Part shown: piece after piece, positions 44,308-55,668 of the stretch
Layout: each line of letters begins with the position of its first letter
Numbering within the stretch: position 1 is the first letter of the stretch
Assembly (NCBI GenBank): GCA_965205215.1
Contig: OZ242041.1
Coordinates: 704,001-768,000 of the forward strand
Origin: Nitrosopumilus sp.
Lineage (GTDB): Archaea > Thermoproteota > Nitrososphaeria > Nitrososphaerales > Nitrosopumilaceae
Length of the DNA: 64,000 bases
Direction: 5' to 3'
Program-made: the position numbers and the translations under genes
Notes under the pieces: generated by a model
Databases searched by the model: none
Seen by the model: only the letters and a program-made list of their open reading frames with translations
Told to the model about the DNA's origin: nothing

Positions 44308-44511
44308 GTGGACTGGACGCTGGGGTTTGTCGCAATCGCGCTGCTTGTGGCGGGGCTCGTGGGCCAGGCCTTTGAGATGCGCCGCATCCGGGTGGCGCAG
44401 AGCGGCAGCGAGATGGGCTCGCCCAGCGTGTTCACGCACCGCTCCAACTTCAAGTGGTATGCCATAATAGGCGCCGGCATCATAATCTGGTACGTGGCCG
44501 AAAGGAGCTAG
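44308..44511 (+). CDS. Small hypothetical membrane protein
   Basis: Two TM helices, GQAFEMRRI...NFKWYAII. Confidence 0.7.
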   Translation: MDWTLGFVAIALLVAGLVGQAFEMRRIRVAQSGSEMGSPSVFTHRSNFKWYAIIGAGIIIWYVAERS

Positions 44512-44564
44512 ATCCAGACCCGATCTATATAGATCAGCCATAAATACTCAGACGTACAACATAT

Positions 44565-44660
44565 GTCAAGCGTGTTAAGGGTAACGCCCGGGCTGAATCA
44601 TGATACAGGCCCAAGAACAAACCCTTGATGGCGGTAACGGGAAACCGTTAACGCCAATAC
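44565..44660 (+). ncRNA. Candidate structured ncRNA (5S rRNA beta-domain-like layout)
   Basis: Helices 44574-82/44621-29 and 44590-95/44606-12; GAAA-tetraloop hairpin 44630-55; TATA-like ATAAATA at 44540-46; lies between convergent genes. Confidence 0.5.
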
Positions 44661-44685
44661 TAATCCGGTTGCGGGCGGCTGCGCG

Positions 44686-46125
44686 CTAGCCCGCGGCCAC
44701 TATCTCGCCGTGTATCGACGCGATGGCCCTTGCGACGTTGTCGGCCGCGTCCTCTATTACGATGATTATCCTGGACGTCTCCTCCTGCGCGTCCATGTTC
44801 AGTATGTTGAGCCCCGCCGAGCCGACGCACGCGCTGGCCCTTGACGCGACCTGCTGCGCGCGCCACATCTCGTCGCCGATCAGCGTGACCACCCCGCGGT
44901 TGTACGTTATGGTGGCAAGCGAGTCGAACGCCATAAAGTACTTCTCATTGCGCCGGATGTAGTCGGCGTCCAGGAACAGCATGCGCCCGAACTCGGTTCC
45001 GTCCTTCGTATACGGGGACAGTATGACAAACTCGCTGTACCTCTTGTCGTTTTCAAGCGACGTGAGCAGCCTCTCCATCGCGGCCTTTTCTATCCTGAAT
45101 ATGGCGCAGTTTGACTTGCCCGTGACCATCTTGATCGGGCTCGAGGATCCGTCGGGATCCAGCGCCCTCGTGATGGTGGTGGTCTTTTCGGGGCGGTTCA
45201 GGTTCGTTATGATGATGGGAACGTCCGCCCCGTTCTCCACTATCTCCTTGATCGCGATCGGGTCGAGTATCTTCATCCCGAACATCCCCGCGAGCCTGGC
45301 CTCGTTGTACGACAGCTGGGGCACCTCGCTGAGGTCGTCCTTCACTATCTTGGGGTCCGCGGAGACCACGGAGCTGTCCTTTTCAAAGTCGATGCTAGCG
45401 TCGTATTCCTTGTGGAACAGTATGGCGACGTCGGCCGCCGTGCGGTCGGTGCCGCCGCGCTCGTACGTGGTGATCGTGCCGTCCGTGGTGCGGCCGATAA
45501 AGCCGCCGATCGAGACCGCGTCGTTTGCCTCGAGCATCGCCTCCATGGGCCCCAGGCGCTTCCTTGACTCCTCGGCAAGAAAGTTCGACGACTCGATGTT
45601 GCTGTCGGTGATGATGGGCCAGTTGTCCAGCTCGACTGAGTCCGACCTGATGCCGTTGTGCGCCAGTATGTGCTTCATTATGTGCGACATTAGGACCTCG
45701 CCGGAGAACGCGAGCGCCCTTGACCTGACCTCGCCCTCAAACCTCCTCTCCGTGCGCGCCTCCTCTAGCGCCTCCCGGGTCCTTGCAAGGCCCTCTTCTG
45801 CGATGGCGCCGCACGCGCCTGCAGTCTCGGCCGTAGCCCCGCGCAGGTTGCTGCGCATCAGCGCGGCGTACGCGTCCGTGACTGTATCAAGCGAGTATTC
45901 TGCACCCGACTCGGCGTTTCTGCCCTGCTCCAGTACGATGTCAGTCAGCGAGCGTATGGTGCCGTCCTGGTTGGCGGTGAGGGGGGCCGAGAACACCGCG
46001 ACCACCTTGGTGTCCGCGTCACGCTTCAGCTCCCTTATGCGCTCGACTATCCTTGGTATGTGCACGCCGTTGGGGCCGAGCGCGCTGCCGCCAAACTTTG
46101 CTATGACCAGCCTCTTCTTTGCCAT
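44686..46125 (-). CDS. lysC: Aspartate kinase
   Basis: AKFGGS, VFSAP, RGGTDRTA, SADPK, GMKILDP, ACT domain. Confidence 0.9.
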   Translation of the reverse strand: MAKKRLVIAKFGGSALGPNGVHIPRIVERIRELKRDADTKVVAVFSAPLTANQDGTIRSLTDIVLEQGRNAESGAEYSLDTVTDAYAALMRSNLRGATAETAGACGAIAEEGLARTREALEEARTERRFEGEVRSRALAFSGEVLMSHIMKHILAHNGIRSDSVELDNWPIITDSNIESSNFLAEESRKRLGPMEAMLEANDAVSIGGFIGRTTDGTITTYERGGTDRTAADVAILFHKEYDASIDFEKDSSVVSADPKIVKDDLSEVPQLSYNEARLAGMFGMKILDPIAIKEIVENGADVPIIITNLNRPEKTTTITRALDPDGSSSPIKMVTGKSNCAIFRIEKAAMERLLTSLENDKRYSEFVILSPYTKDGTEFGRMLFLDADYIRRNEKYFMAFDSLATITYNRGVVTLIGDEMWRAQQVASRASACVGSAGLNILNMDAQEETSRIIIVIEDAADNVARAIASIHGEIVAAG

Positions 46126-47453: not shown

Positions 47454-47528
47454 GGGCTCATAGTCCAGCTCGGTTATGACGTCGCCCTTACACGGCGAAG
47501 ATCCGGGGTTCAAATCCCCGTGGGCCCA
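47454..47528 (+). tRNA. tRNA-Val(TAC)
   Basis: GGGCTCA/TGGGCCC acceptor, TCGCC-CTTACAC-GGCGA anticodon arm, GGTTCAAATCC T arm; TTTAAAT upstream. Confidence 0.96.
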
Positions 47529-49274: not shown

Positions 49275-51239
49275 ATGCAGGCTGTATCCGGACTCATGCC
49301 AAGATCGTACTATTCTTGTGAGCTGTCAAAGTTTCTGGACGATGACAGAGGAGTTATACTGGAAACGATACTTGGCAACGATATTTTTGAGCCAGACAAG
49401 AAGCAGATCGCCGCATGGAAGGAGCAGATCGACATATTGAAAGATCAGCTTTGTGATCTGGGGTCGGGCCGAATCATGTTCGAGTATTCCATACCCAGAA
49501 TGGGCAAGAGAGTGGATAACGTCCTGATCTATTCAGACTTTGTCTTTGTGATGGAGTTCAAGGTGAACAAGACGGTGTATCAGAAACAAGATGAGGATCA
49601 GTGCATTGACTACGCGCTAGATCTCAAGAACTTTCATGAAGCAAGCCACTGCGCATCGATAGTACCGATCCTTGTGTCAACAAAAGCCGGCGCAGCAGAT
49701 CCCGCTGGGATTGGAAAGTGCAGCGATGGGGTGTACGATCTCGCACGGACAAACAAGGACGGCATAACTTGCGTCATAAGACACGTCAGTGACGAAGCGC
49801 CCGGCTGCAGAATCGCCGTCTCGGATTGGGAACGCTCTAGGTACAGCCCCACCCCTACAATTACGGAGGCCGCCACTGCACTGTGCAGCAACATCTCGGG
49901 ACTTGATGGCATAACCCGTTCTGATGATGACACAAAAAACCTGAGCGTCACCGCGGGCGCCGTCGCCGAGATAATCGAGGAATCAAAGAGGAACAGGGCA
50001 AAGTCAATCTGTTTTATCACGGGGGTTCCGGGATCTGGCAAGACGCTGGCCGCGCTCAACGTAGTGTGCGACAGGCTGAATCGAAAGGATGAGCGGGCCG
50101 TGCTGCTGTCGGGCAACAAGACGCTTGTAGACGTCCTCCGAGAGTCGCTTAGGAGGGGCGTGGACTGCATGGAGCAGTATGGCGGTACTGCGGCAGCGGC
50201 CTCGCTCATACAGCATATTCCGACGTTCAGGGACGCGATAGCAGACGACAGAGCGCCTCCCGAGAAGATCGTCGTATTTGATGAGGCGCAGAGGGCCTGG
50301 TCGGCCGAAAAGCTCTCCAAGAATGACAGGATCAAGGGAAAGGCGCGTCAGGGAAAGTCGGATCCGGAGCTGCTGATCGGCGCGATGGACAGGCACGACG
50401 ACTGGGCAGTCGTAGTGTGCCTGATCGGAGAAGGACAGGAGATCCATGACGGGGAGGTCGGACTGTCTGGGTGGATCGAGGCCGTAAAAGAGGGGTATCC
50501 GGAGTGGCGTGTATATCACCCAAGCGAGATCAAGGACCGCGCATATCTGGGCGGAGTAGCTCCAGAACTGCTGAATAACGTAGATCACAGGACGCGCGCC
50601 GGCCTGCACTTGGGCATGTCGATCCGATCCTTCCGGGGCGAGATGCTTGCGGACTTGATCAGGGAGGTTCTGGACTGCCGGATAGAGAGGGCACAAAGCA
50701 TCTGGAAGGAGCTGGCAGGTCGGTACCCGATTGTAGTAACGCGCGATATTGACAGTGCAAAACGGTGGGTCAGGGACAGAGCGCGCGGAACCGAGAGGTA
50801 CGGCATCGTTGCAAGCTCCGGAGCCAAGAGGCTGAAGCCGTACGGGATATACGTGAGATCCAAAATCGAGCCCACGAAGTGGTTTCTGGCAGGTAAAGAC
50901 GATCTGCGCTCCTCATATTACATGGAAGACACTGCTACGGAATTCGAGATACAGGGCCTTGAGCTGGACTGGGTTTGCCTCGCGTGGGACGCAAACCTAA
51001 GATATGACAATGGTGGGTGGTTGCACCGTACATTCTACGGACGGGACTGGAGGCCAATCCGCCAAGAAAGGGATCGATTGCATCTGGTCAACGCATACAG
51101 GGTGTTACTGACTAGGGCCAGACAGGGGATAGTCATATTTGTGCCGAAGGGGGACGACGAGGACGCCACACGAAGATCCGAGTTCTATGACGGGACGTAT
51201 GGATTCCTCAGAAAGATCGGGTTCGATGAGATTGCGTGA
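49275..51239 (+). CDS. DUF2075 / Schlafen group 3-like helicase with N-terminal nuclease-like domain
   Basis: RVD...MEFK, GVPGSGKT, VFDEAQRAW, TEFEIQGLELDW, NAYRVLLTRARQG. Confidence 0.88.
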   Translation: MQAVSGLMPRSYYSCELSKFLDDDRGVILETILGNDIFEPDKKQIAAWKEQIDILKDQLCDLGSGRIMFEYSIPRMGKRVDNVLIYSDFVFVMEFKVNKTVYQKQDEDQCIDYALDLKNFHEASHCASIVPILVSTKAGAADPAGIGKCSDGVYDLARTNKDGITCVIRHVSDEAPGCRIAVSDWERSRYSPTPTITEAATALCSNISGLDGITRSDDDTKNLSVTAGAVAEIIEESKRNRAKSICFITGVPGSGKTLAALNVVCDRLNRKDERAVLLSGNKTLVDVLRESLRRGVDCMEQYGGTAAAASLIQHIPTFRDAIADDRAPPEKIVVFDEAQRAWSAEKLSKNDRIKGKARQGKSDPELLIGAMDRHDDWAVVVCLIGEGQEIHDGEVGLSGWIEAVKEGYPEWRVYHPSEIKDRAYLGGVAPELLNNVDHRTRAGLHLGMSIRSFRGEMLADLIREVLDCRIERAQSIWKELAGRYPIVVTRDIDSAKRWVRDRARGTERYGIVASSGAKRLKPYGIYVRSKIEPTKWFLAGKDDLRSSYYMEDTATEFEIQGLELDWVCLAWDANLRYDNGGWLHRTFYGRDWRPIRQERDRLHLVNAYRVLLTRARQGIVIFVPKGDDEDATRRSEFYDGTYGFLRKIGFDEIA

Positions 51240-51532
51240 CGCGAACCGCCTGGAATGTGTCTGCGCAGACGTGATCTGGTAAAGACCCCTCAAATTGATA
51301 ACCTTGCTCCAAAACCTCCGTTTTCCATCCAGAACATCTCTACTATGCGGATTGCCTCTCTCTAGTACCGCTTGCATACGAAGCGTATTCTGATCGAGAT
51401 TACTCTGCTCCTTCCCTTAGTCACCCCGTGGCCCCCTACTGGTGCAAATTTGTTTCCATTCAGGTGGTCTCAATGTGGCGGGATCCAACCACGCGGCACA
51501 GATCTGCATGCGAGACGCGGCAGGTTGCCTGC

Positions 51533-52285
51533 TCACGTTATGTTTGCCGGCAGATCCGACAGCTTCCTGATCCGTGATTCGTCTGCAAACCTGTCGTCCT
51601 TGACCCTGTCGGGCACGTACAGGAATATTCCGTGATCAACGATGTTCTGAGCCACCCTGTTGGACAGTACCTCGTTCTGCAGGATTGTCAGCAGGTGAAT
51701 AATCTGGCCCTGGTTGTGGAGGAACAAACGCCGCCTCCATCGATCCCGCAGCGACGTCTTCAGGGACAGGAAGTGCGTTCTGTCGGGCGACGCGACGGCA
51801 GTCTCCCTGTCGGGTATGACAAGGTCTATCCTGTTCAGCCCGGCCCTTTTACCCCCCCGGGTCACGCGCTCGCTTGGTATTCCAATGATGTGGAGCAGCT
51901 CCTGCACTATGGCTTCGAAGCTGCTTCCGGCCCTGGATGATCGTGACTGGCTAAGGCTCTTCTCCATCCTGATGGCTTCCGTGACTGCCGTCCTGAACAT
52001 CTCATGTGCCTCTTCTCTGCCAAGGGAACTGCTCCATTTTGATAGAAACGTTTCCTCTGCAAAGGAGTTGATCGTGTTTTCCTCGTACCTCTTGTACGTC
52101 TCATACGTCACGCTGAACACCTTCTCCAAAGCATCCGAAAAGTGGCTTCTGACAAAGTCGGGCTTCAGCATTTCAGGGCTATCCCTATGGATCTGTTCTA
52201 TGGACTCGAGTATGATCTCAGACGTACTTGGAATGTCTGTCTTGGCGGCCAATATCCACCCTTCTACAAGCATGCCTATAAGCAA
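51533..52285 (-). CDS. EcoRII-C-like type II restriction endonuclease, active site disrupted by micro-inversion
   Basis: SRSSRAGSSFE, RIDLVIP, LKTSLRDRW, HLLT; start may be TTG 52252. Confidence 0.8.
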   Translation of the reverse strand: MLIGMLVEGWILAAKTDIPSTSEIILESIEQIHRDSPEMLKPDFVRSHFSDALEKVFSVTYETYKRYEENTINSFAEETFLSKWSSSLGREEAHEMFRTAVTEAIRMEKSLSQSRSSRAGSSFEAIVQELLHIIGIPSERVTRGGKRAGLNRIDLVIPDRETAVASPDRTHFLSLKTSLRDRWRRRLFLHNQGQIIHLLTILQNEVLSNRVAQNIVDHGIFLYVPDRVKDDRFADESRIRKLSDLPANIT

Positions 52286-52504
52286 TTCATCCGGGTTGCA
52301 GTTCTACCATGCCTGTGGCAACAGGCGCTTCCGAGATATGCCACGATCCCCGTCCATTACGTCTTTTGTCCAACGAAGTCGAGGCATGATCCGGATTACC
52401 CGCATTGCATTCTGGTCTTGGATAGCGCTGCATGACGCGTAATGCAGCTATTAGATGCCGCGTTCCGCATCTCTTTATTATGGTGTGTGGCAGAAGTGGT
52501 TGCG

Positions 52505-52921
52505 TTGACGGACGTGTTTACGCCGGAGAAGCGCTCGTGGGTCATGTCAAGGATCAGGGGCAAGTGGACTGGAATAGACCTGAAGATGAGAGAAATCTTG
52601 GCCGGTATGGGCACGCGGTTTGAGATGTATCCGAGCATGCTGGGGAATCCGGACTTTGCGCATCGCCAGATGAGAATAGCCGTGTTCTGCGACGGGGACT
52701 TTTGGCACGGATACCTCTACCGACATGGGAAAGTTCCTAGGCAAGCGTTCTGGAGGGAGAAGATTCTAAGAAATATGAAGCGTGATCGCTACGTCACCGG
52801 AAAGCTGCGACGCGAGGGATGGTCCGTGCTGCGGTTCTGGGAGCATGACATAAACTCCAATCCTGAGAAATGTGCTCGGAAGGTTAAAAAAAAGATTGCA
52901 GAACGGCGCCATGTGCGATAG
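52505..52921 (+). CDS. vsr: Very short patch repair endonuclease
   Basis: DVFTPEKRSWVMSRIR, GNPDF, FCDGDFWHG, FWREKILRNMKRD, GWSVLRFWEH. Confidence 0.93.
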   Translation: MTDVFTPEKRSWVMSRIRGKWTGIDLKMREILAGMGTRFEMYPSMLGNPDFAHRQMRIAVFCDGDFWHGYLYRHGKVPRQAFWREKILRNMKRDRYVTGKLRREGWSVLRFWEHDINSNPEKCARKVKKKIAERRHVR

Positions 52922-53025
52922 CAGTCCGGCAAAACCCTGTCAAACGCTTATTTCGTATTTGTTGCTGGTGCCTTCCATGAATTGTTTTATATGATGTTTA
53001 TATATCGTTGTCAAGAAAGATCTCT

Positions 53026-53508
53026 ATGAATAGCAAAATTAACAGCGAATTAGACGCTTGGATAATTACATATATGGCTACATTGGGTGATTATAGAGTC
53101 ACACCATACGCCATAATTTCAAAAGCGCCTCAACAATTAGCGGTTAAAATCCCAAATGAACGAACACTAGTAGAAAATCTATTTGCTTTAGAACAAAAGG
53201 GATTAATACATCGTCAAGTGTATGCTGAGTTCGAGCTCACTAATGATGGGTTGTTAGAATATAGAAAATATATTAATCCGCTATGGGAATTATCTCGCCA
53301 TAAACCAAAATATGAAAATATTTTAGACAAAACCGATGGAGACATAAAATCAAAAGAAAGCGTCAAAAGAATTCTAAAAAAAATTAGAGATCTGACAATA
53401 GAACAAGCATATGGCGTACTTACTACTTTCCTAAAACAGACTGGAAACGAATCTATTTATCTTATAATACGCATACTATCAGAATTAACAAACTCTGCGA
53501 GTATTTAA
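53026..53508 (+). CDS. AT-rich hypothetical protein (possible wHTH)
   Basis: Very low GC; LEQKGLI...FELTNDG. Confidence 0.6.
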   Translation: MNSKINSELDAWIITYMATLGDYRVTPYAIISKAPQQLAVKIPNERTLVENLFALEQKGLIHRQVYAEFELTNDGLLEYRKYINPLWELSRHKPKYENILDKTDGDIKSKESVKRILKKIRDLTIEQAYGVLTTFLKQTGNESIYLIIRILSELTNSASI

Positions 53509-53658
53509 TGACAAAGTTGTCACATATAGCCATTTTGTGATGCTTGCAAGATGCTTTGTCGGAATTCAGATCTCTATCATACTCAAAATAGTAATTTGTC
53601 GATCTGTTTGAATAAATTGAAAAAATAAGGGGAGGAGTTTGCAGGCACTCCTATAGCC

Positions 53659-53714
53659 TTCTGCCGTCTATGATGGACTTGAACCCGGCCCGGGATCAAT
53701 CCCCGTGGGCCATT
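53659..53714 (+). repeat. att-like site copy 1 (palindrome plus tRNA-Val 3' end)
   Basis: AATCCCCGTGGGCC identical to tRNA 47513-47526; inverted repeat TTGAACCCGG/CCGGGATCAA. Confidence 0.75.
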
Positions 53715-54342
53715 GTGATTAATTCTTGGTTCGGATCCCATCAAATTACGAATATCCAATTGGGCCTTATTTGGCACAGTAGGAGGATCCATCTCGGCCT
53801 TATTCCTATGTGAGATCGTGACGGTGGCCTTTGAGAACAAGAAAGCAACAGAGTGATCAGAAAAACCCTCATGCGTGGGGAGAAGTATAAGAGTAACGGG
53901 CCTATTTTTCATATGCTACATTAGATGGGTGACAGGTGGGCACTCATAATCTGATAACGCTGGTGGTGCCTGTCACTGATGCTGCCTTGTATGCACTGAT
54001 TACAATTGACATGTAGCGTGAATGGGGGTGATGTCTGTTCATTATAGTGTGACATGACCTCTTAACCTGTCAACGACTGTTCTGACTTCTTTTTCTGAGA
54101 ATATTTCTCTCTGGCCTGTTATAAACGCGTTAATATTTGCCAAGTTTCTTACTAGGACGAATCTGAAACTAGGATCATATCTCATGTTGTCTTGAATCGG
54201 CAACAACACCTTTGTGACAGGCGGGTTGCTTGGATCCTTCCAGGACTTTAGTGAAATCCACAACACCATTCCTGCTCTATCTACTTGTTCGTGGGGACTA
54301 ATGCCTTTGTTTTGCGCATAGTATGCACGGCTCCAGTTCTTG

Positions 54343-55668
54343 CAGTCAACGCAAATGTGACTCGAACAAGCCCTCCGGCAGGTCTGGCGGGGGCTTCGGC
54401 TCGAGGGTCGGATCGGTGAGAAGGTTGTGGAGGGCCCCTGCAAACTCCCCCCACTTGAGGTCGGGGGCGTTTGCGGTTCCCATCAGGAGGTACGCCCGGG
54501 ACATCAGGGCCCTGGCGATTATCCACGCGTCGTAAAAGAGGCACGTGTACATGAAGCAGAACATCCGGGCCGCCGGGGCCCTGCACCGCGTCTTTGCATT
54601 GCCCTGTTCAAGCAGCCTGTATCCGGTCTCTATGTTCCACCGCCGCCCGTACCTGTCGGGGTCCGCGTCCGGCACGTTGGTGGCAAACGCGATGTACCTT
54701 TCCTCCGGCGGCTCCGGGTACGGCGCGTGTTTTTTCCTGCGCCTCCTCTCCGTTATTACGGCCCAGTACGTGGCCGTGCGCCCCCCGCCGCCCTCGCTTA
54801 TCTCCAGCTCCGACACGCGGTGCCTGGCCCTTCTCGAGTACTGCCCCAGCGCGTCCACGACGGTGTCGGTGTTCCTGCACGGGATCAGGAACCGTATCCC
54901 GTTTTCGCTGAGGTACCTTATCACCCCCGTGTTGAAGAACTCGCGGTCCATCATGACGAGGCCGATCTCGACCCCCACGCGGCCGCATATGTGAATTAAC
55001 TCAGGCACGAAGTCGGGGGTGGACTGGAGCTTGCGCACCGGAACCACCCCGAGCACGAGCTTTTCCCCGTTGACGACGCACTGAGCCGTGGCATATCCCT
55101 CGAACCTGTCGGTCCCGTTCCTTGGCTTTTTGCGCACCAGTTCGGGGCCGTCCCTCTTGTCGTATCTCTCCCTGTAGTGAAAGTCGATTGCAATGTCGAC
55201 GGGCCCGCTGAACAGTCCCATCGCCTTCATGCGGTCCACGTACATCCCCGTGTCCCTTATGAACAGCTCGCGCAGGCTCACGCCGTCGACGGCCCTCATC
55301 CACTGCATCATTCGCTCGCCGCACGGCAGGGCGCGCGCACCGGGCTGCCCGACGTTGGTGCCGTTCCTGTCCATCGCGATGGAGGTCACGTTGCGATTCC
55401 TCATGCACGCCTCGTACATGACAAAGTCCATGTCCTCCTTGCCGTAGAGTGCGTTGTACCTGCTCGAGAATGGCAGCGCGCTTGACAGGTCCCCCAGCTG
55501 CAGGCTACGCAAAATAGATTGATATATCGCGTAACCCCGCGCAGATCGTCTTAGGCGGCTTTTCTTCAATTCGCAATCAGCCGCCTTAAGACGTCACATA
55601 TAGATCTTTTTCATATGCGCGCATTATAGCCTTGCGCCCCCTCTCTTGGGGCACATTTGCGTTGACTG
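54343..55668 (-). mobile_element. ISH3-family (IS4-like) insertion sequence, 1326 bp
   Basis: Perfect 17-bp TIR CAGTCAACGCAAATGTG; 5-bp TSD TCTTG at 54338-42 and 55669-73. Confidence 0.93.
54346..55569 (-). CDS. DDE transposase
   Basis: IAIDFH, MDREFF, YGRRWNIETGYR (YREK-like); stop inside the TIR. Confidence 0.92.
   Translation of the reverse strand: MKKSRLRRSARGYAIYQSILRSLQLGDLSSALPFSSRYNALYGKEDMDFVMYEACMRNRNVTSIAMDRNGTNVGQPGARALPCGERMMQWMRAVDGVSLRELFIRDTGMYVDRMKAMGLFSGPVDIAIDFHYRERYDKRDGPELVRKKPRNGTDRFEGYATAQCVVNGEKLVLGVVPVRKLQSTPDFVPELIHICGRVGVEIGLVMMDREFFNTGVIRYLSENGIRFLIPCRNTDTVVDALGQYSRRARHRVSELEISEGGGGRTATYWAVITERRRRKKHAPYPEPPEERYIAFATNVPDADPDRYGRRWNIETGYRLLEQGNAKTRCRAPAARMFCFMYTCLFYDAWIIARALMSRAYLLMGTANAPDLKWGEFAGALHNLLTDPTLEPKPPPDLPEGLFESHLR

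Follow-up and report, generated by a model that had tools for sequence, protein, structure and literature searches.

The window analysed here is a 64,000-nucleotide (nt) stretch of DNA from Nitrosopumilus sp. (assembly GCA_965205215.1, contig OZ242041.1, positions 704,001 to 768,000), whose genome we refer to as G000. Between two convergent genes, this stretch carries a gene for a small structured RNA that has not been described before; sequence comparison indicates that the gene is real, and it has a promoter of its own. The gene is assigned to positions 44570-44655 of the + strand, with a length of ~90-105 nt and a conserved core of ~60 nt. An open reading frame (ORF) of 67 amino acids (aa) precedes it on the + strand, a gene for an amino-acid kinase (lysC) faces it on the - strand, and the gene for a class IV aminotransferase is found upstream, beyond the small ORF. 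The RNA element occupies a dip in G+C content (0.46-0.50, compared with ~0.6-0.7 in the surroundings). An original prediction, made from the letters of this DNA, had placed a novel non-coding RNA (ncRNA) between convergent genes here; the 67-aa ORF and the kinase gene confirm that setting, and the palindrome, ATAAATA box, helices, internal loop and second hairpin that it described all lie where it had located them (Table 1).

Table 1 Features of the RNA gene and its immediate neighbours, numbered from the first letter of the window
Feature	Position	Strand	Remarks
Upstream palindrome GATCTATATAGATC	44522-44535	+	14 bp; holds the TATA-like CTATATAG
Second TATA-like box ATAAATAC	44540-44547	+	ATAAATA at 44540-44546; TCTAAATA in relatives
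5' single-stranded GCGUGUU	44570-44576	+	Predicted 5' end of the RNA
Helix 1, 5' strand AGGGU	44578-44582	+	Partner 44621-44625; extendable back to 44574 in G000
Extended helix GUUAAGGGU / ACCCUUGAU	44574-44582 / 44621-44629	+	Seen in the G000 sequence
Internal loop, 5' strand AACGCC(C)	44583-44589	+	AACGC invariant
Helix 2, 5' strand GGGCU	44590-44594	+	Partner 44608-44612
Inner helix GGGCUG / CAGGCCC	44590-44595 / 44606-44612	+	Loop AAUCAUGAUA at 44596-44605
Apical loop	44595-44607	+	Self-complementary hexamer UCAUGA at 44598-44603
Helix 2, 3' strand GGCCC	44608-44612	+	Covariation across 96 sequences
Internal loop, 3' strand AAGAACAA	44613-44620	+	Family consensus AAGAAYAA; A-rich, nearly invariant
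Helix 1, 3' strand ACCCU	44621-44625	+	Covariation across 96 sequences
Hairpin 2	44630-44655	+	Sequence variable, stem covarying
67-aa ORF, no Pfam family	44308-44511	+	Upstream neighbour, conserved; outside the RNA
Amino-acid kinase gene (aspartate-kinase-like, 'lysC')	44686-46125	-	PF00696, E 2.4e-25; downstream, convergent

Folding of the single sequence gave a modest signal, and the sequence alone proves little: the + strand has a minimum free energy of -38.3 kcal/mol (z -2.31), a value reached by 5 of 200 shuffles, and the - strand comes close to it (z -2.14). A BLAST search of 41 relatives with 121 nt matched 14 further genomes of the same genus (E<=2e-8). When the 15 genus sequences were aligned with MAFFT, the RNA body and the upstream TATA-like elements proved conserved, whereas a ~20-nt spacer did not, and RNAalifold recovered two hairpins from this alignment. 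With no fitting to a structure, 95.3% of its cells pair, 8 pairs changed on both sides and 0 of 500 shuffles were as good. Ninety-six distinct sequences aligned by fitting to R1, a covariance model of the whole RNA, which favours the structure, gave 96.4% paired cells, with 17 of 20 pairs changed on both sides and again 0 of 500 shuffles as good; slid controls on this alignment brought the paired fraction down to 22-56%. The original prediction had suggested looking for covariation among homologues from other genomes, and both alignments bear it out. All 5 pairs of helix 2 and all 10 of hairpin 2 changed on both sides among the 96 sequences. In helix 1, one pair turned from GC into CG in 5 sequences and into AU in 1, and the outer pair occurs as UA, AU, GU or UG. 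These results show two covarying hairpins.

The + strand is fixed because G-U and U-G pairs become A-C mismatches on the - strand, and the promoter upstream and the U-rich tails that follow hairpin 2 add to this. The top pair of helix 2 is U-G in 78 of the 96 sequences (C-G in 5, U-A in 7), in line with the earlier argument from G-U pairs, and other wobble pairs occur at three positions (GU 8, UG 22, GU 14). An H/ACA-like RNA on the - strand, its ACA 14 nt away from the upper stem, was rejected because of these mismatches. The U-rich tail follows hairpin 2 in low-GC relatives, and hairpin 2 is probably a terminator or a hairpin that protects the 3' end. Three details of the proposed fold do not hold across relatives: the GNRA (GAAA) loop of hairpin 2 is present in G000 only, the outer four pairs of helix 1 (GUUA/UGAU) are not conserved, and the CUGA of the apical loop is CUAA in most relatives. 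No conserved pairing of the 5' tail with the 3' tail was seen in the alignments by eye.

The promoter is conserved as a unit. Upstream of GCGUGUU, at a fixed distance, we found (G)A(T/A)CTATATAGATCA(G/A)SYCTAAATA in almost all of the 140 listed among 180 distinct upstream sequences, which shows a conserved TATA-type promoter belonging to the RNA itself. The composite promoter occurs once in the G000 genome, and a promoter class common to other genes was rejected on the strength of this uniqueness. The second TATA-like box has its last A (44546) 23 nt upstream of G44570; in L034, a near-consensus relative, the corresponding distance to the G of GCGUGUU is 24 nt. Such distances are usual between TATA box and start in archaea. 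As the spacing fits, the start of the RNA is predicted at ~44570. The 14-bp palindrome may be the first TATA box or a regulator site. It is symmetric around its TATA-like core, contains two GATC sites and ends 10 nt after the stop codon of the small ORF; such a sequence could drive transcription in both directions or bind a dimeric regulator. Thaumarchaeal start sites are reported in PMC5069720, where they are given in supplement tables only.

Unpaired bases of the RNA have stayed invariant. GCGUGUU is invariant in 84 of 84 loci found with the model and in 89 of 89 core sequences. Two further blocks are invariant across genera, namely GG-AACGC (helix 1 and the 5' strand of the internal loop) and GAA-AAACC (the 3' strand of the loop and helix 1), and the internal-loop strands AACGCC and AAGAAYAA as a whole are invariant or nearly so across the family. 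This invariance spans AT-rich relatives, whose RNA matches have 32-50% G+C, through to the window at ~60%. Second, diverged copies of the RNA occur in four genomes (L250:4001-4100, L251:4001-4091, L252:4001-4113 and L253:4001-4104), and these paralogues keep exactly the three invariant blocks. Two of them lie ~0.9-2.2 kb from ilvD, one is beside genes for AhpC and a PNPOx-like protein, and one is between EF-2 and a menaquinone-synthesis gene. The two near ilvD (L250 and L251) have CGGU/ACCG as helix 1, lack hairpin 2 and end in ACAUUUUU directly after helix 1. As paralogues can dispense with hairpin 2 and retain the invariant blocks, the functional core would consist of the 5' tail and hairpin 1, ~60 nt in all. 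In a further genome, L254, the single copy of the RNA also adjoins a PNPOx-like gene.

R1 matched 117 of 151 genomes of the Nitrosopumilaceae, in 20 of 27 genera and nearly always in single copy; three of the matching genomes are unpublished, without which the count is 114 of 148. Among high-quality genomes of the family, 96 of 115 matched. In a sample of the class, R1 matched 75 of 80 genomes from the family and none of the 70 from eleven other families. R2, a second model restricted to the core, scored no higher than 23.3 bits in 130 genomes from the phylum's other families, compared with 54.8-88.2 bits in family members. A pattern scan with one genome per species matched at least 119 stretches, and the 80 titles listed all belong to Nitrosopumilus, Nitrosopelagicus, Nitrosotenuis, Nitrosarchaeum, Nitrosotalea or Cenarchaeum, or to archaeal metagenome-assembled genomes labelled at higher rank (Thaumarchaeota/Nitrososphaerota, Nitrosopumilales, Nitrososphaeria, Marine Group I or 'Archaeon MnTg01'). 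The RNA is confined to one archaeal family, in which most of the marine and soil ammonia oxidisers retain it; this family, with Nitrosopumilus, Nitrosopelagicus, Nitrosotalea and others, ranks among the most abundant archaea of the ocean and is important in soils. With a conserved promoter, covariation and matches in 20 of 27 genera, the proposal of a novel ncRNA on the + strand that is transcribed from its own promoter is supported. No diverged copy was found near lysC in four genera that lack the RNA (best score 8.8 bits). A link to ammonia oxidation was rejected, as all 27 genera have amoA, even the 7 that lack the RNA (g21, g24, g26, g29, g34, g37 and g39); carriage by viruses was likewise rejected, with 0 matches in viral contigs.

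The RNA matches no known family that we tested. At the gathering score, Rfam release 15 found only one RNA in the window, a tRNA at 47454-47528 (+ strand, 62.6 bits). The original prediction had proposed scanning RF00001 and all of Rfam at relaxed thresholds; such scans of the window region and six relatives returned only sub-threshold noise: - strand matches to chrB-b and mir-998 at 17.7 bits and, in one relative, a SNORA54 match (E 2.4) that scored 18.2 bits where the threshold is 60. The genes for RNase P RNA (173.2 bits), signal recognition particle (SRP) RNA (111.4 bits), 16S and 23S rRNA all lie elsewhere in G000, and a reduced RNase P or SRP RNA was rejected accordingly. A full-text search of the literature found no description of this RNA or of a family-specific ncRNA for these archaea. 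Shi et al. (2009) reportedly described marine small RNAs, which may bear on the novelty of the RNA.

The original prediction had gone further and seen a 5S-like architecture, suggesting a diverged 5S paralogue or a decoy for the 5S-binding proteins uL18 and uL5, and this part does not stand. The outline is indeed that of 5S rRNA, with a helix, an asymmetric loop, a second helix and a loop of 10-13 nt, and there is local likeness to the 5S rRNA of G000 (AAGUCAAACCUGAUG compared with AAGAACAAACCCUUGAUG); a possible C-G pair after an AA bulge also resembles helix III of 5S rRNA. However, RF00001 gave no match on 44400-44800 even at E<=10 (gathering score 38 bits), and genome-wide at E<=10 it marked three places, none of them the RNA locus. 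A canonical 5S gene is present at G000:C1:1011951-1012070 (78.2 bits), and neither R1 nor R2 matched a 5S gene in any model search. The consensus fold of two hairpins includes no conserved equivalent of helix I, loop E or helix IV/V. The likeness to helix II of the G000 5S rRNA (GUCAGG...AAGUCAAACCUGAUG) falls on helix-1 and linker positions that vary in other genera, and an extended 5S-like helix between the 5' tail and the linker was rejected as it is broken, by eye, in other genera. With no RF00001 signal, helix I or gamma domain, a relative of 5S rRNA was rejected; we regard kinship with 5S rRNA or a decoy role as largely refuted and very improbable.

A hairpin with a large internal loop, both strands of which are invariant, would also suit an H/ACA-like or other pocket-type guide, with the loop pairing on two sides with rRNA or tRNA; the weak SNORA54 match in one relative points the same way. 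Against this, there is no ACA (ANA) box 3' of helix 1 on the + strand, where the linker reads NNNUGG (for example, UGAUGG, CUUUGG or GCGUGG after ACCCN) and ACA occurs only on the - strand. By eye, no K-turn or K-loop with the tandem sheared G-A pairs that define the motif fits, the relatives' loop having only one GA (CUAAAUCUAGAUAAUGG). The best two-part rRNA target of the pocket reached 11 of 14 positions in 23S and 10 of 14 in 16S rRNA, G-U pairs included. We did find an exact 16-mer, GGCGTTACTTGTTCTT, that is complementary to both internal-loop strands (G000:C1:947878-947893, outside the window and AT-rich), but it occurs in G000 alone and lacks conservation: in 100 other genomes of the family, counts at up to 2 mismatches equal those of controls. 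The match is probably due to chance. The H/ACA guide was rejected for want of the box, the K-turn and a two-part rRNA target above 11 of 14, and a guide of this general kind seems to us highly unlikely. A C/D box small RNA (sRNA) was rejected as well, the CUGA and UGAUA of G000 being CUAA and AGAUA in most relatives. Predicted duplexes with pre-rRNA spacers reach -16 kcal/mol, a value for G000 alone. For the loop 10-mer, GGGUAACGCC, most of 61 genomes contain the complement nowhere but at the RNA gene.

Two internal rearrangements were also considered. A riboswitch-like switch, suggested by a repeated GUAACGCC in the genus, was rejected: pairing between the 5' strand of hairpin 2 and the loop has a mean z of -0.61 over 78 sequences and is found in the own genus only. 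Pairing of the 5' UGUU with AAYA of the loop was rejected as Y is A or G in ~11 of 81 sequences.

Assembled contigs from RNA libraries contain the RNA. A 117-nt query from L034 retrieved 12 RNA-library rows with half or more of the sampled words, and along L034:1101-2000 the RNA is covered by contigs from four metatranscriptome studies. These contigs are strandless and such libraries can contain DNA, so they attest presence only, and not ends, strand or level; uncovered stretches are uninformative. One contig of 199 nt begins ~10 nt upstream of the conserved block and extends 85 nt beyond hairpin 2, and another of 197 nt begins 1-4 nt before the predicted start. A contig of 658 nt joins the RNA and lysC, and one of 174 nt joins the end of the small ORF to a diverged copy of the RNA that also has UCUAGA. 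In run X9, a contig placed on L034:1456-1524 carries a diverged copy, GGGCUGAGUCUAGAUAAUGGCCC, with compensating changes in helix 2 and the same UCUAGA loop.

The neighbourhood of the RNA is conserved to differing degrees. lysC lies tail-to-tail with it in 81 of 84 loci, ilvE, the aminotransferase gene, lies upstream in 71, and the small ORF was found by tblastn in 63. A cis riboswitch was rejected, as the downstream gene is convergent in those 81 loci. The genus g29, which lacks the RNA, keeps the order ilvE, small ORF, lysC, with the small ORF and the kinase gene abutting, which marks the RNA as a separate gene whose presence at this syntenic site varies. The small ORF, in which we see two hydrophobic stretches by eye, thus also occurs in a genus without the RNA. 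In six loci (L069, L076, L077, L082, L086 and L090), ~200 nt separate hairpin 2 from the end of the lysC match, compared with ~20-40 nt elsewhere (about +110 to +320 from the RNA start). Outside the window, at G000:C1 ~51100-54900, a motif is repeated at 285-nt intervals, at least 13 times in all, which looks like a long tandem repeat, perhaps within a large gene.

The close association with lysC raises the possibility that the RNA acts in cis, as a convergent antisense transcript or two-way terminator that tunes aspartate kinase through read-through or pairing with the 3' untranslated region. The tail-to-tail arrangement is indeed more constant than the presence of either ilvE or the small ORF, RNA-library contigs extend ~85 nt past hairpin 2 or into lysC, and the - strand after hairpin 2 reads GGGUUUGUUCUU, possibly an oligo-U stop for lysC. 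Yet there is no lysC close to the RNA at L066-L068 or at the four paralogues, the spacing between the RNA and lysC varies from ~115 to 320 nt, and genera without the RNA regulate lysC without it. Nor would antisense pairing or termination need an invariant loop, an invariant 5' end or a covarying palindrome. We consider a cis role for lysC improbable.

That palindrome lies in the apical loop of hairpin 1. We compiled 101 distinct cores from 216 loci, chosen without regard to the loop, and every one has a 6-nt palindrome there (TCTAGA in 92, TCATGA in 7, CCTAGG in 1 and TCGCGA in 1). The 9 cores that depart from UCUAGA all do so by symmetric double changes, and no single-change variant was seen among the 101. 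UCAUGA occurs in genera g1, g33 and g19, CCUAGG in g40 and UCGCGA in g19; the loops of paralogues are palindromic too, with CCUAGG in that of g1 and AAUCGAUU in that of g33 (L253). A two-base loop cannot close an intramolecular helix, and the palindrome is therefore read as selection for the pairing of two copies of the RNA: a loop kept self-complementary through change suggests that the RNA works as a pair. In nearest-neighbour estimates, an extended dimer of hairpin 1 is favoured by -11.4 kcal/mol, compared with -6.6 for shuffled loops, and for 29 of 62 sequences no more than 1 of 30 loop shuffles matched the predicted dimer gain. These energies are for an extended duplex and do not represent a true kissing complex.

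The 14-bp palindrome of the promoter and that of the loop could alternatively be inverted repeats recognized in DNA by a dimeric regulator, with no functional RNA involved, and symmetric changes would also keep such half-sites matched. G-U and U-G pairs break the DNA symmetry at several positions among the 96 sequences, however, and three separate helices covary, including that of the variable hairpin 2, in a region represented in RNA-library contigs. An element acting purely as DNA is, in our view, barely credible.

Taking these observations together, we tentatively favour, at somewhat less than even confidence, a trans-acting RNA that would dimerise through its loop and bind a conserved protein or ligand. 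Three unpaired blocks are invariant and no conserved complement of the loop 10-mer turned up; we therefore favour a folded particle with such a partner, probably in dimeric form. It would act in trans in this folded form and not as an antisense guide. The apical-loop hexamers of two molecules would pair with each other, either in a kissing loop or in an extended duplex, and the unpaired GCGUGUU, AACGCC and AAGAAYAA would together form a compact site where a conserved protein or small ligand could bind. This site may arise from an H-type pseudoknot between the 5' GCGU and ACGC of the internal loop, stacked between helices 1 and 2, with the A-rich strand in the groove. Hairpin 2 would serve only as a terminator or as 3' protection. 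Such a pseudoknot may explain all three invariant blocks; because the bases concerned never vary, the data speak neither for nor against it.

The main rival is a base-pairing sRNA, in which GCGUGUU and the next 2-3 nt would be a seed for mRNAs, hairpin 1 a handle for a protein, and hairpin 2 with its U-tail the terminator. A seed at the 5' end is the arrangement of the bacterial 5'-seed sRNAs, the most conserved single-stranded stretch does lie at the predicted 5' end, and the paralogues retain that end and finish in a U-tract. The equally invariant strands of the internal loop would then be unneeded, however, and the palindromic loop unexplained. Moreover, the complement of the loop 10-mer has no conserved site elsewhere, and AACACGC, the complement of the 7-mer, is absent from the 16S, 23S, 5S, RNase P and SRP RNAs and 42 tRNAs of G000; mRNA targets across genomes were not searched. 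On balance, a seed-pairing sRNA seems unlikely.

Several points weigh against a dimerising, trans-acting particle. The pairs of the proposed pseudoknot are all invariant, so covariation is blind to them, and we estimate that 4 complementary bases between two invariant 7-mers would arise by coincidence in about 1 in 15 cases. A purely trans role leaves unexplained why the RNA and lysC are so strictly tail-to-tail (81 of 84 loci), and the 5' end could be a seed for pairing with mRNA. The palindrome could be read at the level of DNA or by a dimeric protein. The RNA-library contigs are strandless, with the 658-nt contig running into lysC and another into the end of the small ORF.

A single-copy RNA with invariant unpaired bases must touch a conserved partner, and the core offers a defined object of 60 nt for pull-downs, ligand screens and structural work in organisms without genetics. 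The palindrome would also be a rare cellular case of RNA dimerisation visibly under selection. Still more speculatively, and rather doubtfully, the RNA could represent a new class, a compact, pseudoknotted, self-dimerising sensor or ribonucleoprotein RNA specific to the Nitrosopumilaceae, such as a metabolite aptamer that stands free or the RNA component of a particle not yet recognised, acting in trans and with a dedicated regulator at the 14-bp palindrome.

Known systems offer partial parallels. With the helix II-loop B-helix III-loop C arm of 5S rRNA, the RNA shares the outline of two helices and an internal loop, as well as the short sequence likeness in G000, but it has no covariance-model signal, helix I or gamma domain. 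The H/ACA guide sRNAs of archaea resemble it in their lower stem, large conserved internal loop, upper stem, size and own promoter; unlike them, this RNA has no ACA box, K-turn or K-loop, or two-part rRNA target. The bacterial 5'-seed sRNAs of the RybB/OmrA type likewise combine an invariant 5' end with a structured body, a 3' hairpin or U-tract and their own intergenic promoter, whereas the RNA described here is archaeal, is not known to have an Hfq-type partner, has an invariant internal loop and a palindromic apical loop, and found no target in our searches.

Two further parallels concern the two halves of the proposed mechanism. The H-type pseudoknot aptamers preQ1-I, SAM-II and guanidine-III differ in that the present RNA does not lie upstream of a gene, shows no switch outside the genus, has no Rfam match and has a pseudoknot that is predicted; in common with them are the possible GCGU:ACGC helix crossed by the A-rich AAGAAYAA and the strong conservation of unpaired bases. 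The kissing-loop hairpin of the HIV-1 dimerisation initiation site (DIS) belongs to a viral genome and has a 9-nt loop, whereas ours is a cellular archaeal RNA with a 13-nt loop and a dimer proposed from sequence only. Both place a 6-nt self-complementary sequence in the middle of a purine-flanked loop, and in both the variants keep their self-complementarity.

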